Source of the DNA: Catajapyx aquilonaris
Taxonomy: Eukaryota
DNA length: 64,000 nucleotides
Assembly (NCBI GenBank): GCA_000934665.2
Contig: JYFJ02000904.1
Location: forward strand, 1 to 64,000
Reading direction: 5' to 3'
Part shown: positions 49,476-57,400 of the stretch, piece after piece
Layout: every line of letters starts with the position of its first letter
How positions within the stretch are numbered: the first letter of the stretch is position 1
Translations under genes and position numbers: made by a program
Notes under the pieces: generated by a model
What the model was told of the DNA's origin: nothing
What the model saw: only the letters and a program-made list of their open reading frames with translations
Databases searched by the model: none

Positions 49476-49795
49476 CGGAGTTAGGAACAGTTATTCTCAC
49501 ATTTTTTGGTTGATGTCAGATGGAAAACACTGTGCAAGGTGCCCATGTCGATTGGAATATGTGTTGTACCAGATGGATTTCAGTTCTTTTTGGGTCACGG
49601 CTGACCTTGATGGCACACACCTCTGGGGTGTAAATGAGTTGAAAAGGTACGAATGTTTACATATATAAACAGTGAACTGTACGTGGGTCATACTGGAAGG
49701 AAAAGTGTCGACACTACATATCGTAATGCAAATGTGCTAGGTTGTAACTTATTGAGCTTCTAGTAATACCAGATTTTGTGTTTCAGATATACAAA

Positions 49796-52700
49796 ATGGA
49801 AAGAAACATTACTCCAGGCAACCCGTTTGCAGCTCTCTTTGAGGGGCAACCCAGGCAGGAGAAAGTTCCACTAATGGAGGAGAGTTCGCCAGGGCCACCA
49901 ACAACCGAGTGCCTGGAACGTATTTTTGGCATAACGTTAAACAAGAATGGGCAGTCTGGAGTGCTGCGAGTTTACCTAGAAGATGTTGCTGGATCAAGTC
50001 AAGGGCAGCTGGACATGGACAACCTGGACCAGGCTCTGTTTGAGCGGCTCACTCTACCTGACCCAGAAAAGCACGCAGTTGGTTCCTCGGCAGATGGAGT
50101 AACCAGAAGGCACATCCTTGAAAAACAGGTTGCATCGTATCTATATGAGGCATACACACGTTGTGTTACATCAGAAGCACCACACCTGGGTCCTCGTGGT
50201 GTTGAGAGTGTGACCCAGACTGTGGCTCGGTATGTGGTCATGGGCCTGCAATCTGAGGTGTTTGACCAGCCTGTGCATTCAGACTTTTTGCATGTTGCAT
50301 CCAATTCAGTTCACTCTCCTGAGGTATTGCTTCGCCTTCTTCGAGACATAGTCAGAGAGGTTAGAAGTCAAGAGGGTGATGAGGCCCCTAGTACAATAAC
50401 GATCATGTTTTATCCATTACTTGACCTGCTTCGTGACAGTGCAAAAACATACACCCTGACTGGGCTCAATCTAGCGCACATCACATTGCTGCAGGTGATG
50501 GCAACTGTCCCCCTTATATCGACAGCCATTGTGCTGCATAGTATGCCTTCCAGTGCATCTTCTGGGGTCAGCTGGTCTGACACACTGATTGGTAATCTGC
50601 TGTCAGTGTCATGCTTGCCCAGGTCAGACCTAGGGCCAGATCGGTACTTTGAGAATCCTGGGCACCAGCAACTAGCTGCTATATCATCGGAGGAGGGTGC
50701 TGTGTGGAATGCTAGTAAGATTTTAATTGAGGCTCTTCACACTCTCTTCTTACACATGTTGAAGTGTTCAAAGGAGAGCAAGCAGGCAGTGATGAAGTGG
50801 CTCGGTGGGTGTGTAGAATCCAATTCAGCTCGAGCCAAGATGTGGAATGTGCAGCTGGGTGGAATTCTTGGGGCTGCCCATGTTGGAGATGGATTTGCTC
50901 TAAACTTGTCTGCTCTTCTGCTGCGTCTATGCCACCCATTTTGCGGCAGACCAGACCATCCCACATTGCAAAAGGTCAGTCCACAATTTGTTGATGACAC
51001 AATTCTGCTGCCAAGCCTACATGATTCAGCACGCCTGATTCCACATGAGCTGTCAAGTCAGCCAGAGAAACAGTATGGCTTTGTCACAGAGCTATTTTTT
51101 TTGACGCACCGAACCTTTGAGACATGTGTTCGTGTCGCTTATGATAAGCTAGCCAAGCTTAGCCAGGAGCTTGGTCGCATCCAACGACTATACCAGGAAG
51201 CTGTATCTCAAGGTGCTGATTCCGAAGCAGCTCAGCAGATACAGAAGAGGATGAATGCTGGGATGACACGGTACCTGTGTCTCAAAGCAGCCCTACTTGC
51301 CCCAGACTTCTTATCGGACTCAATCAGCTTTGCAGTGGCAACGGCATCATGGTTGACTCACCTGGCAACTGGATCCGATCCAGTGTTTCCTCTCCCAACC
51401 AATGTGCCACCTGAGCTGTCATGTGTGCCTGAATCAGTTGCAGAGAATGTTGGAGAACTTGTCGTCTTTTTGTGCCGCTTCAGTCCCCAGAGCCTTGAAG
51501 AGAGTGGATTATTGGATCACATCCTCACCTTCATATTAGTATTTATGGGCAGCCCCGAGAGGATGCGCAACCCTCATCTGCGTGCAAAGATGGCCGAGTG
51601 CATGGAATCACTCCTCCCAAATTCAGATGAGCGGGATGGGCGCTCCTCCCTGCAGCCCCGGCCCATGTTTAGCACCTTTCAGCGTGATCTTCTGTTCCGG
51701 GAGCACTCACACCGCATACACATTGTACCAACACTCCTGCATGTGTTTGTGAGTATTGAGATGACTGGCCAAAGTGTGGCTTTCGAGCAAAAGTTCAACT
51801 ACCGGCGCCCTATGTATGCTGTCATGAACCATCTCTGGACCCTAGAGGAGCACCGTGATCGCTTTGCAGATCTAGCTGCTCAGGCTGAAGCTGATATGGA
51901 GGCAGTAGACCCACCATTGTTTTTGCGGTTTGTGAACTTGTTGGTGAATGATGCCATCTTCCTTTTGGATGAGGCCCTTGGGTACATGTCACAGCTGCGT
52001 GATCAACAGGCTTCAAGGGAATCAGAAGAATGGAACCAGATGCCTCCGCAAGAACGCCAGCAAGCTGAATCAAACATGGCCCACATGGAGATGATAGCCC
52101 GATTCCACAATGTGTTGGGTCGTGATACCATCAGAACCCTTGAGATGTTGACAGCACATGTGCAGAGGGTGTTCACTCATCCTACCATGGTAGACCGAGT
52201 TGCTGCCATGCTCAACTACTTCTTACTCCATCTGGTGGGTCCCAAGAAGAAAAACTTTAAGGTGAAGGATATGGACCGGTATGAGTTCCGCCCAGCAGAG
52301 ACGGTCACTGACATATGTCGAATATATGTGAATCTGAGTGGAAATAGGGACTTCTGCAGGGCAGTGGCATCTGATGGAAGGTCATACAGCCCACAGCTGT
52401 TTGAGCAGGCTGAGGTGGTGCTGGAAAAGATTGGCAGAGCAGCCATGGTTGGAGAACTAAGGGAAATGGCTGCTAAGGTAGGGGAGGCTGCCACCAGGGA
52501 GCAGAGCCAGGAGGAGTTGCTGGCCGGAGCACCTGAAGAATTCTTGGACCCCATCATGAACACAGTGATGAGCAACCCAGTGGTGCTTCCCACCTCCAGG
52601 ATAACTGTTGACAGATCAACCATAGCCAGGTAAGCGGCATTTACATAAGGTGACAGTCATGAAGCCAGTTGGTGCAAGTGACTAACCGACAGGAAGAACC

Positions 52701-52881
52701 ATTAAGAATCAGTGTTGCTGTCAACTCATATCATTGCAATTTGTTTTACAGACACCTGCTGAGTGACCAGACGGATCCATTCAACCGAATGCCTCTGACT
52801 ATGGACATGGTAGAGCCTAATGATGAACTGAAACAACGCATTGAGGCTTGGGTGCTTGCAAAAAGAGAGAAGGAGCTTTGA
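49796..52881 (+). CDS. UBE4A: Ubiquitin conjugation factor E4 A (Ufd2 core plus U-box)
   Basis: ATG at 49796 ('[15 protein letters not shown]'); exons 49796-52629 and 52752-52881. Motifs '[10 protein letters not shown]', '[21 protein letters not shown]', '[21 protein letters not shown]', and U-box '[48 protein letters not shown]'. Confidence 0.96.
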
Positions 52882-53568
52882 ACAGGAGTCGGTGGTATAA
52901 CCGCACTGAATGAATGGGCAGTGTCTGTGGTTCCTTGACTGTATTTTTTATTGATGTCATTACCATTGCTTTTATCATGCGATTGGTTTTAAAACAATGT
53001 TACCTGTTGCACTTTTCAAGTGAAGACCTTTAGATCAACAATTATGGGCAGGTGTGTGGACGGGTCAATTGTTGCATAGCCGATTGTTGTAGCCTGCCAT
53101 TTGTATCAAAAAAAGGTAGGGCTAAGGCACAGACTAGATGAACTACATAAGCTCACTGGAAGAATAAATATGTACAAAGTGGGGAAGGGAAGGCAATAAA
53201 ACCTGTGTACTGGCAACTTCTACTATTAAAACTGGGGACTCCTGAAAAAAATGTTGCTCTGATCAGGAGTGCAGATGCAACGTTAAAAGAAGAAAAAAAA
53301 AAATCTCTATGTACACCTGAAGTTGCATTGTCACTTCCCATATCAGAGTTAGCCCCCCTACTGTTGCATAGCTGCATCACCGGAATTGTTATTCAGTCAG
53401 AAAGGTGGAGAAGGGGCAAGGGAATAAATATGTACACTTGATTTTAGGGTGATGGTGTGGGGGCAAAAAAGTTCTTGCATAACAATGGTTCCCTGACGTA
53501 CACAGTAATACATGGCTGCCACATCATTGCACTTTCGGAGCTGCCATTATTTTTCAACAACACTTTTG

Positions 53569-54407
53569 TCATTTCCCACCAATCAGTGACCTGACTTTGT
53601 TAACGCACCGGTCCATGAAGCCTCTTTTACGCTGCTTTGGCTCAGTCAAAGGCAGCATCGACACTGAGCGACGCATTGGAGTGGCAGTGTCACTGACAAT
53701 GTTCCCAACAGAGTTGCCTGTGTCCAAGACTTCCTGAGTCTTGTCCTGCTGCACTTGCTTTTCTTCAGGCTGAAGCTGCAAATACTCCTCACATGATGTC
53801 ACCATCTCTTCTGTGTCCTCCAGCTCCTGTGAAAACAGCAGGTTTAATAACATTGTTCCAACTGCAGTCACCTTGCTGTTATCTTACACTGGCATCTTGG
53901 AGGATGGTGTCAAGGCTGCGGGCTCTTCGGAAAGAACCGGAGCTTTGCAGTTTTCCTGCAGGAACATTGTTAGTGTTGGTCCTTGGCGGAGGCAGTGGCA
54001 CTTTTGCACTGTTGGGGTTGTTGAGGTTGTTAAGGCTCTTGATCCTCCAGGTGCGAGGCGAGTTCCTTGGTCGTGACTGTGGGCTCAAGGGAGGCTTCTG
54101 ATGGGCGGGGCTGCAGGATCGACGGCGCTGCTGCTGAATTGTTGGAAGGTGGCCTATAGAGCCTCTCTTATGTGGCCTGATGATGAAAATGGTAAATTAT
54201 GTTACATAGGTTGTTGTAGTTGTTAATTTGTTTATTTGCTAAATCAAGCACTAGTTAGTCTCACTATACCTACAGTATATACAAAGAAATTATGCGGAAG
54301 TCACATGGAAGAAGTATGGCGTGTCATACATTTTATAAAAAATTTAGCCGTTATGTTGTATCAGAAAAAGATGCTCACCTGCCGTGTTTGGCCAGGGATC
54401 CGTCTAG
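53569..54407 (-). CDS. SARM1: In-frame C-terminal extension of SARM1 beyond UGA-CUAG (segments 54407-54379, 54176-53888, 53826-53569)
   Basis: After GAT TGA CTA G the frame is open to donor AG|GTGAGC. It splices in phase to a stop-free 289-nt exon, then via AGT|GTAAGA to a final exon ending 'RGFMDRCVNKVRSLIGGK*'. Confidence 0.7.
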
Positions 54408-57400
54408 TCAATCTTTACCACCCCCATTCTGTGTTGCATTGTTGGAACCACCACCATTGTTGTTTTCCTTGTCTGAGCAGGAGGATCCCTTCCCACTCTC
54501 AGTACTCTGTGTCCGCTGGTAGACAGGGTGCCTCCCTAGTGGGGGTGCTGAGCTCGGACCCACAACAGAGGCAGTGCTGGGAGTGCCTGGAGTCGCATCT
54601 CCCCTTCCCCCTACTACAGACCCACCCCCAAGCCCACTACCTCCAACATACCTCCCAAGAGGCCCATCTGCTCGGACATTCATCTCCCCACGCATGAACC
54701 TCTCTAACTTGTCCACACAAGCATCCTGATAGTCATGGATCCAGCGGACACCATTAAAGTAGCACACTGCACGCATGTCTTCTGGGAGAGCCTCTGGCTC
54801 TGGCCATTGAAAATTGTCAATTATGGGTATGATGTTGCACTGGGACTGAAGTGCAGCCACAATCTCCTGTAATAGCCCAATGCATAATTATTGTACAAAA
54901 CTATACAGGATATATTTCAGTTTATCTTCAAGGATAACTCACCCTATGGACCCAATCCTTGCATTCTACGTCTGCAATACATCGATCTAGTGCCTCGGGT
55001 GTGAGTACAAGTAGGAAGTGCTTTGCCTGACGAATGCTCTGCAGGAGGTTGTTGTCAAACTTGCCAGCCTCCAGCCTCTCCACATCAATAAAGACAGTGA
55101 ACCCACGAAGTTGCAAGTGCACCTTAAGCAAGCTAGCAAGCTGAGATCCATTGGAGCGACGATAGCTCACAAACACGTCCAGAGACTTGTCCAGGTTCTC
55201 GTCAGAGGCCGTTGACAGGCCAGAATCAGCTGATAAAACATAACATATCATTGTAAAGCAACAAGAAGGCCTAGACTTGTCAAAAACTCGTGGGATTTGA
55301 TGTCTGACTCACCTCTGAGAGCCTCTGCAATCTTGAGCCTGTGAATGGAACTGTCAATTCCACATTCTGTGAGAAGTTGCTCTTCATGCAAGCAGCGCAG
55401 CACATCCTTATCTACCCCTGCATTTAGCATGGAGTATGTATAGATGGAATATTCTACACTGATGTTGAGCAGGAAAGCATTGAGGTTGCTAGTGTCACAG
55501 CTGCTGTAGTCAGCCATCTTCTTCAAGTTACGCAGTTCCCTCATGAAGCGCTTGCGCAAAATGCCATTCTTCATTGTAATATCATCTCTTAGCATGTCCT
55601 CAGTCAGTTGCAAGAGGAGATCTCCATCCACTCGACTCTCCACAAAATCCCCAGCATACTGGGAAAATCCAATCTGTTTGACCCACTCACGGACGTCCTC
55701 AATGGACCACAGAGGCACCTGCTGGCTCAGCTTGTGTGGAACTTCCTCCCCAATCAGCTGCAGTGCCTGGGCTGCATACTTGGATGCAATGGCATTGGGA
55801 GAGGAAGCTACTTTCTTCAATGGCTCAACTGCTCCAATATCCCGGAATATCTCAGTGTTGCCCTGCTTACGCCGGATTCCAGCCTCCATGCAAAAGTGGA
55901 AGGAGGCCAGATTACGTGCTTCCTCTCGCTTTGAACTCAGTACAGGCACAAGTCGCTGGAGCCAGTTTTTAGACTGTCCGTGGGCATGGGCCTGGTTTGA
56001 TGCAGCAAACTCAGATGGAGAGTGTGTCGTCACAAAGGGTTCCACCAGCTCCAAGGTGCCTGATCTGAGGACAGCTGCTTCAATCTCCTTATTGGCCACC
56101 AGCACAGCAATGGCCAGGCAGGCATAGTACTTGATGTTGTCATCCTGGTTGAATGCCAGGGGGAACAACCACATGGGTACCTTCCTCTTGATCATTGCCT
56201 CTTGGTTCTCAGCTCCACCATACAGTGAAAGGTTAGCCAGGGCCCCAGCGCAGTGTCGCAGTGTCTGGATGTCGTTTCTCCTACATTCAAACAGAACAGC
56301 ATCCAAGCCTCCCAGCCGAATTACATCTGAGCAGGTACCCTCACTGTGCTTGAACAGGTGTTCCAGGATCCCAGTACCAACTCGTGACTGCTCGGCACAT
56401 CTGATGCTGTTGGCAGTACACATGCAGGCAACTTGTACAACTGTTTCCAGTCCAGTCTCAACCACATGTGCTCTGTTTTCAGTTGTGAGGCATTGTTCCA
56501 GAAGGCGTGCACTAGAGAACTGAAGGTCCATGTTCCGTGACCGGCAATTTTGGATGAGTACGTCAAGGCCACCAGTATTCCTGACCACATTGCACAGGGA
56601 ATAGCCTAGCTCATGACCATGTGTAGCTACAGCCCATGCCTTGCACATCATCTCGCTAACTCCATTGAGAAACTGTGGGGCCTCTTCTTCCCTAACCCGC
56701 TTCAGGTGTTCCATGCAATTGGACATAACAGCTGAGTACTTGGTGATGGCCTGTTCCACCTCACGGGAACTGGAGTCTGCATTTAGCATTTCCAGGTCTT
56801 CAAATGATGGTAGGGCAGAAGACGAGTCAGAACCAATCAGAGCTTCAGTAACTGCTTGGCTCATGTGAGATGCTGAAGATGCTGAGGAAGAAGACACCAT
56901 GGAGGAAGAATGGGCTTTGGTGCACACTCCCTTTGCAGTGATGGTCAGTTTGGATTGGGATGAGGCAGCCATGTGTTTCTCTTGGTTGAAGATGCCTGAT
57001 GACGTCACAGTCTGCCTCTGCTGCTGTGCTGCCATCGCCATCTGGAAAGGATGTTTTATTGGGTCAGGACACTTCAGCCATCTTCCAATTATCTAATTAA
57101 TTACTCCAGATCCCATTATAGTAGATGGTTCCCCACAGTTTGCCCCAGGTCATGTCAGGCTGTGAGAACTATCAGTAATGGGGCTATATACACTTGGAAG
57201 GTTTCTATTGCCTCCTCCCTAAGTTCCAGTGTAAGTGACAGTAATGCTCAGAATTGTTGATGATGATGACCAATGATGCACACCAAAGGAATCTTATGAA
57301 GAAGATTGCTCTAAATTATTTTTACATCATGATATCACCCATGCGAGGCTCTTTATGCCAAGATACAAGTGTGTACAAAAAATCTGACATTCTTCTTCCT

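Follow-up and report, generated by a model that had tools for sequence, protein, structure and literature searches.

A UGA-CUAG stop codon followed by a conserved, spliced tail in an arthropod SARM1 gene: probable programmed readthrough

The minus strand of a 64,000-nucleotide (nt) stretch of Catajapyx aquilonaris DNA (contig JYFJ02000904.1, positions 1 to 64,000; the whole stretch is called the window below) carries a gene whose consecutive exons match the Pfam families Arm, SAM (in tandem) and TIR_2, which identifies it as SARM1 (Sarm/Ect4). The coding frame of this gene stops at a TGA followed directly by CTAG, and an open frame continues behind the stop across two introns. We consider it likely that this arrangement reflects conserved programmed UGA-CUAG readthrough, by which SARM1 would also be made in a form extended by 191 residues, a mostly disordered tail bearing conserved R-x-x-S-L-D and basic-helix motifs. 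Readthrough at this position is probably ancestral to insects and crustaceans, as judged from the related loci compared here.

The stop codon, its spliced extension and the transcript

The SARM1 frame ends with GGT AAA GAT TGA, where the TGA occupies 54410-54408 and CTAG lies immediately 3′ of it. A splice donor, CAG/GTGAGC (54379/54378; the slash marks the exon boundary), is found 29 nt (nine codons plus two bases) past the TGA. The acceptor ...CATCATCAG/G leads into the next exon from 54176, the donor of which, AGT/GTAAGA, is at 53888, and the last exon runs from 53826 (acceptor 53827/53826) to a TGA at 53571-53569. Both splices preserve the frame. The spliced post-stop frame comprises 191 codons without a stop, and was open in only 5 of 5000 dinucleotide shuffles. 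The first-pass annotation of this DNA had proposed the TGA, two alternative donors and both tail exons from the letters alone, and all of its coordinates proved correct when the sequence, the translation and the splice sites were checked.

The upstream exons were searched against Pfam, with matches to SAM_2 (2.1e-19, two stretches), SAM_1 (1.1e-16), Arm (2.4e-4) and TIR_2 (4.3e-9), and no Pfam domain was found in the tail exons 54176-53888 and 53826-53569. When the 152-amino-acid (aa) last common exon was used as the query, 536 arthropod protein matches were obtained, and the best ones carry the name NAD(+) hydrolase sarm1. The best matches, from spiders, decapods, ticks and insects, were 60-76% identical over 88-96% of the 152-aa query and extended well past a second potential donor at 54652, indicating that SARM1 coding sequence is conserved from 54652 up to the stop.

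A single 6408-nt contig from a public run (X1) was found to match the window with zero differing letters, the TGA being retained. Its joints on the minus strand connect 54379 to 54176, 53888 to 53826, 54943 to 54866, 55313 to 55229 and 57874 to 57041, all with GT..AG borders, and the same contig also omits a plus-strand intron of the convergent neighbour gene. The kind of run is not on record, and the RNA origin is read from these six GT..AG joints; we infer that the contig is an assembled cDNA of two overlapping transcripts. The junction from 54379 to 54176, one of the two routes to the tail that had been suggested, is present in this contig as a spliced form, with the stop kept.

The C-terminal ends of 120 proteins listed of the 536 matches were compared. 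A [KR][DE] end, as in the window, was present in 71 of the 120; seven proteins had the dipteran-type [SV][DE] end, 22 the chelicerate H[CIV] end and 14 other or aberrant ends, and the remaining six were gene models continuing into a long tail. The chelicerate SARM1s (spiders, ticks and horseshoe crab; among P0001-P0036) possess the Gly/Ser-rich C-terminal segment and end in ..SHC or similar, and none of those listed carries a tail. Judged from sequence, the locus in the window is the terminal (3′) part of an arthropod SARM1 gene (ARM-SAM-TIR NAD(+) hydrolase (NADase) family) of the insect-plus-crustacean type, and the leaky stop with its tail looks specific to this type. The earlier proposal had referred to readthrough in insect neuronal genes; the comparison points to the insect-plus-crustacean type and does not establish "insect".

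Conservation of the stop context and of the post-stop frame

Metagenome contigs were scanned with an alignment of C-terminal fragments, which gave 76 related loci. The match reached the conserved C-terminal block and the stop in 43 of the 76, yielding 34 distinct stop neighbourhoods of 81 nt. Among these 34, the stop was TGA in 22, TAG in nine and TAA in three. A TGA followed by C was found in 20 of the 34, distributed as 14 TGA-CTAG, two TGA-CAAC, two TGA-CTCC, one TGA-CTGG and one TGA-CTAA. The TGA-CTAG loci, when classified by their nearest named protein, were leafhopper-like (91%), mayfly-like (85%), phylloxera-like (87%), termite-like (95-99%), cladoceran-like and midge-like, and six more TGA-CTAG lineages were just 40-58% identical to any named protein.

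The frame behind the stop was then compared in the 16 loci with a contiguous post-stop frame, all of which also have a contiguous upstream open reading frame (ORF) of 72-1230 codons. Frame 0 was open for 118-514 codons in all 16 loci, and the other two frames were open for at most 19 codons, except for 147-148 codons in the L036 group. The window-type C-terminal motif GF[VM][DN][KR]CV.K.. closes the ORF in 15 of the 16, the other one (L004) running off its contig. In a control class of nine loci with TAA, TAG or TGA-G, frame 0 was open for 0-16 codons. These SARM1-like control loci (L014, L017, L026, L027, L029, L031-L033 and L049) are 42-57% identical to named arthropod proteins; their proteins end in ..SIDSAIGS.. 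or ..ESGI[FY]F.. and have no post-stop frame.

The peptide right behind the stop is conserved as well, reading L[DE]G[PQL]AS.. in the loci and LDGSLAKHG in the window, with GGA, GGC and GGG all used for Gly. A nucleotide view of the stop region, covering 18 loci and the window, showed a phase-2 donor 20-35 nt past the stop in the window and in the termite-like, mayfly-like, L056 and phylloxera-like genomic loci. Several lineages have no intron separating stop and tail. The Nei-Gojobori dN/dS of the post-stop ORFs, computed for seven close pairs belonging to two lineages, lay at 0.05-0.22; few changes underlie these values (Sd 8-25, Nd 2-16). Where the ORFs differ in length, they do so by whole codons. 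The first-pass annotation had named conservation of the stop context and of the downstream frame in orthologues as one test of its long readthrough isoform. Both are kept across many arthropod lineages, and the preservation of TGA-C(TAG), post-stop peptide, frame-0 ORF and low dN/dS supports that isoform.

At least one database gene model crosses the stop in another way. Compared with locus L003, the Ephemera danica model P0072 lacks precisely the 12 residues flanking the stop and picks up again with the peptide behind it (DGPAS..). The gene predictor seems to have bridged the stop by a gap too short to be plausible, and the tail-bearing models P0092, P0096, P0099, P0101 and P0109 may likewise bridge it. 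For the window, a micro-intron of the kind implied by P0072, in which the AG of CTAG would serve as 3′ splice site, was rejected because the sequence before CTAG is purine-rich without a pyrimidine tract, the intron would be only ~36 nt long, and the contig keeps the stop.

Weighing readthrough against other explanations

From the gene structure and its conservation, we infer translation through the stop, its frequency and a role of the tail in localisation or activity as follows. Most ribosomes probably halt at the UGA and release the ordinary ARM-SAM-TIR NADase ending in Lys-Asp, and on a fraction of them a near-cognate tRNA probably reads the UGA, so that translation runs on over two exon junctions. 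The long isoform made in this way would add the tail, which could regulate the localisation or the activity of the enzyme.

A number of observations weigh against this proposal. TGACTAG is no rare heptamer across the window, with 7 matches against 8.2 expected; what is above chance is its placement at the SARM1 stop, combined with the open in-frame tail and the conservation elsewhere. No stimulatory structure was found downstream of the stop, the z-scores being -0.21, +0.77 and +1.06 for 60, 100 and 150 nt of spliced RNA. Readthrough stimulated by a stem-loop or pseudoknot was rejected on these values, and the signal would be the context alone. Word-index searches of longer proteins with tail exon 1 or tail exon 2 alone found nothing; only a local blastp and a full phmmer scan recovered the tail. 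The RNA evidence is one assembled contig, and contigs drop minor isoforms, such as one made via the 54652 donor. The related loci are metagenome contigs, several of them from one lineage and none closely related to the window. Moreover, two loci depart from the common pattern. The tail of L038 is otherwise intact but lies in frame +1 through a one-base longer A-run; this shift may be a homopolymer assembly error or a real variant. In the comparison of L038:3576-3700 with L035:459-720, which belong to one lineage, a 3-nt deletion was seen together with the one-base longer A-run. In the cladoceran-like L006 (2017-2900), a second in-frame TGA follows 22 codons past the conserved TGA-CTAG, and frame 0 after this second TGA continues to the conserved C-terminal motif, so that L006 contains either an unspliced intron of multiple-of-three length or a case of double readthrough. 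Finally, one row in supplement file 2 to Jungreis et al. 2016 (Molecular Biology and Evolution, PMC5100048) marks the Drosophila melanogaster transcript Ect4-RE as 'Non-RT' and bears the tag 'Preliminary' for its Anopheles counterpart.

Among the other explanations, alternative splicing fares best. The tail would then come only from a minor isoform in which the 54652 donor, or another one, is used and the TGA is skipped, the tail exons here being 3′ untranslated region (UTR). The donor GAG/GTATGT (54652/54651) is a good one: it is the sole upstream in-phase GT with 7 of 9 consensus positions, it precedes the 54379 donor, whose phase it shares, by 273 nt (91 codons), and it would join the 54176 acceptor in frame. 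A minor isoform may also escape contigs, and the gene model P0116 departs from the common sequence ahead of the stop. However, this route would drop 81 codons of conserved SARM1 coding sequence, and a join from the 54652 position ('GPLGR') to the tail was found neither among the 120 listed proteins nor in the X1 contig. The first-pass annotation had offered the 54652 donor as a second route to the tail, and these results do not bear it out. The mRNA-like loci all retain the stop with the tail in frame 0 (16 of 16), which alternative splicing does not require. The 9-12 codons right after the stop can be translated only with the stop in the message, yet their peptide is conserved with synonymous changes, and the lineages that have no stop-to-tail intron also argue against tail production by splicing only. 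We therefore regard this explanation as unlikely.

Still less probable is that the tail is a separate downstream cistron, translated by reinitiation or internal initiation, or that the tail exons are untranslated in Catajapyx aquilonaris. Database ORF callers do give pieces of the tail as separate small proteins starting from an internal Met, for example P0121. In the window, though, the first Met of the post-stop frame comes past its halfway point and conserved motifs precede it. In each of the 16 loci frame 0 stays open from immediately behind the stop, a feature that an independent cistron does not need, and both the low dN/dS and the 82% identity to P0121 argue against an untranslated region.

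Adenosine-to-inosine (A-to-I) editing of the UGA to UGG (Trp) in some transcripts could give the extension without ribosomal readthrough, and RNA editing is frequent in arthropod neuronal transcripts. In the minimum free energy (MFE) fold of the pre-mRNA, 14 nt near the stop form a helix with the 3′ part of the following intron; the paired segments are 54414-54427, just before the last sense codon, and the pyrimidine tract 54184-54197 on the minus strand, in the MFE and the centroid structure alike. The predicted helix, however, does not extend as far as the UGA, and the pre-mRNA folds no more stably than its shuffled versions (z +1.37), so that it adds no structure in favour of readthrough either; a duplex for editing over the stop was rejected. 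The X1 contig has no differing letter, though contigs drop minor variants. ADARs disfavour a 5′ G neighbour, which the A of UGA has, and editing leaves the conservation of CUAG past the stop unexplained. Editing thus appears very improbable.

Selenocysteine at the UGA is the least credible explanation and was rejected: the in-frame UGA and the downstream frame are both conserved, which speaks for it, but many annotated short proteins end exactly at the UGA codon, the CUAG at +4 to +7 is a readthrough context and no selenocysteine signal, and no selenocysteine insertion sequence (SECIS) was found, with no SECIS or any other Rfam match at E<=1 in window positions 52600-55000 and none at the gathering score in 10 related loci (44210 nt).

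The tail, its neighbourhood and the prior record

The tail peptide has relatives of its own. In a blastp comparison within the 120-protein set, tail exon 2 matched the C-terminus of P0072 with 39% identity over 88 aa (E 3e-9). A phmmer search of 1.84 billion representatives gave 6 matches to the tail, of which P0121 was 82% identical (E 2.2e-27); the five further relatives share the near-invariant end ..KRKRNFMDRCVNKVRSLI.K. Motifs of tail exon 1 also occur in the tails of the gene models P0072, P0092, P0096 and P0099, and the RRARSLD motif has the counterparts RTHSLD, RSRSLD, RSHSLD and KSLDD in related proteins and loci. The alignment of tail exon 2 was modelled with AlphaFold2, which predicted helices at residues 3-17 and 63-83; the predicted local distance difference test (pLDDT) score averaged 63.9 over the whole model, and the C-terminal helix (residues 63-83) formed a block of pLDDT 67-90. 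Outside its two helices the model is of low confidence, and the helices alone were used. Most of the tail would be disordered; it would hold a basic Pro/Ser-rich part containing R-x-x-S, a helix of acidic character and, at the C-terminus, a conserved helix that is basic. The features of the locus are collected in Table 1.

Table 1. Features at the 3′ end of the SARM1 gene in the window (slash, exon boundary)
Feature	Position	Strand	Basis
SARM1 exon, ARM repeats and tandem SAM	55313..57041	-	Pfam; contig joints; splice sites
SARM1 exon, first part of TIR	54943..55229	-	Pfam TIR_2 4.3e-9; contig joints
Last exon of the short form: remaining TIR and Gly/Ser-rich C-terminus, end Lys-Asp	54411..54866	-	Arthropod SARM1 matches
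Candidate upstream in-phase donor GAG/GTATGT	54646..54654	-	7/9 consensus positions; no sign of use
Putative leaky stop TGA 54410-54408 with CTAG 54407-54404	54404..54410	-	Sequence; orthologous stop neighbourhoods
Post-stop segment, 9 codons and 2 bases (LDGSLAKHG...), phase-2 donor at its end	54379..54407	-	Sequence
Intron, 202 nt, GT..AG, CAG/GTGAGC and CATCAG/G	54177..54378	-	Absent from spliced contig
Tail exon 1, basic, Pro/Ser-rich	53888..54176	-	In-frame and stop-free; covered by contig; motifs in related tails
RRARSLD, conserved R-x-x-S-L-D motif resembling a basophilic site	53909..53929	-	Counterparts in related proteins and loci
Intron, 61 nt, GT..AG	53827..53887	-	Absent from spliced contig
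Tail exon 2, acidic part and basic C-terminus, final TGA 53571-53569	53569..53826	-	phmmer relatives
Conserved C-terminal basic helix (..KRKRGFMDRCVNKVRSLI..)	53578..53640	-	Invariant alignment columns; AlphaFold2 helix; related motif in loci

A gene for a UFD2/UBE4-type E4 ubiquitin ligase (49748-52881, plus strand; Ufd2P_core 1.7e-168, U-box) converges on SARM1. The 3′ UTRs of the two genes appear to overlap tail-to-tail, one X1 contig spanning both spliced 3′ ends (52600-53825). The axon-protecting WldS protein includes a piece of Ube4b, which makes the E4-ligase neighbourhood a curious coincidence.

The mammalian UGA-CUAG readthrough genes reportedly include AQP4, MAPK10, OPRK1 and OPRL1, and are said to need no large RNA structure. 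Such genes are the subject of Loughran et al. 2014 (Nucleic Acids Research, PMC4132726). Their stop and four-base context are identical to those of the window, whereas their extensions are short and vertebrate; in the window the 191 residues are encoded across splices and are kept in arthropods. Jungreis et al. (2011, 2016) and Dunn et al. (2013, eLife, PMC3840789) reported that conserved readthrough is abundant among insects and crustaceans. The genes of these surveys resemble that of the window in a kept stop, TGA-C enrichment, protein-like post-stop evolution and neuronal character, and the present work differs in that one SARM1 stop was traced over many lineages.

The first-pass annotation had also raised the question whether readthrough was already annotated for Drosophila Sarm/Ect4. 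The supplement cited above lists Anopheles gambiae AGAP005901-RB as a readthrough candidate (TGA-C, 1152-nt interval) in a row paired with Drosophila Ect4 (FBgn0262579; Ect4-RE, FBtr0304994). The Anopheles candidate resembles the window: the gene is orthologous, its TGA is followed by C (+4), and the extension in frame is long (384 codons). As listed, this extension is one contiguous interval, whereas the 191 codons of the window are spread across two introns; apart from the paired Drosophila orthologue, the row notes no conservation. Drosophila melanogaster Sarm/Ect4 belongs to the same gene family, yet its Ect4-RE is the transcript marked as non-readthrough there. A search of main-text literature pairing readthrough with Ect4, dSarm, Sarm or SARM1, with supplements largely outside its reach, gave nothing relevant (an unrelated Plasmodium paper apart), and in the literature on AGAP005901 no readthrough report was found, only an unrelated insecticide-resistance paper. 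SARM1 readthrough is thus already known as a listed candidate in one mosquito in that supplement; new here are the spliced instance in the window and the tracing of stop, context, frame and tail across insect- and crustacean-type lineages.

A more far-reaching possibility, which we hold to be unlikely, is that the UGA-CUAG leaky stop was inherited from the insect-crustacean ancestor and switches translation between a short and a long form of the axon-death NADase, with splicing and recoding coupled. The exon-junction complex, or the choice of 5′ splice site just past the stop, would then tune readthrough in those lineages that have the phase-2 intron 20-35 nt past the stop, namely the window and the termite-, mayfly- and phylloxera-like loci.

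The degeneration of axons after injury is executed by SARM1, which also has a role in innate immunity; arthropod models, among them Drosophila, the fly in which the axon-death role of Sarm was discovered, have supplied much of the knowledge of its biology. If the proposed readthrough is true, the tail would be a conserved, unstudied module of SARM1 that offers candidate sites for phosphorylation and ends in a basic helix. Annotation pipelines would then be mishandling the SARM1 stop: most models end at the UGA, and at least one crosses it via an impossible gap. The event would rank with the oldest cases of readthrough that have been followed gene by gene, predating the insect-crustacean split, and it would offer a clean test case for readthrough that depends on context only (UGA-CUAG without RNA structure) outside vertebrates.

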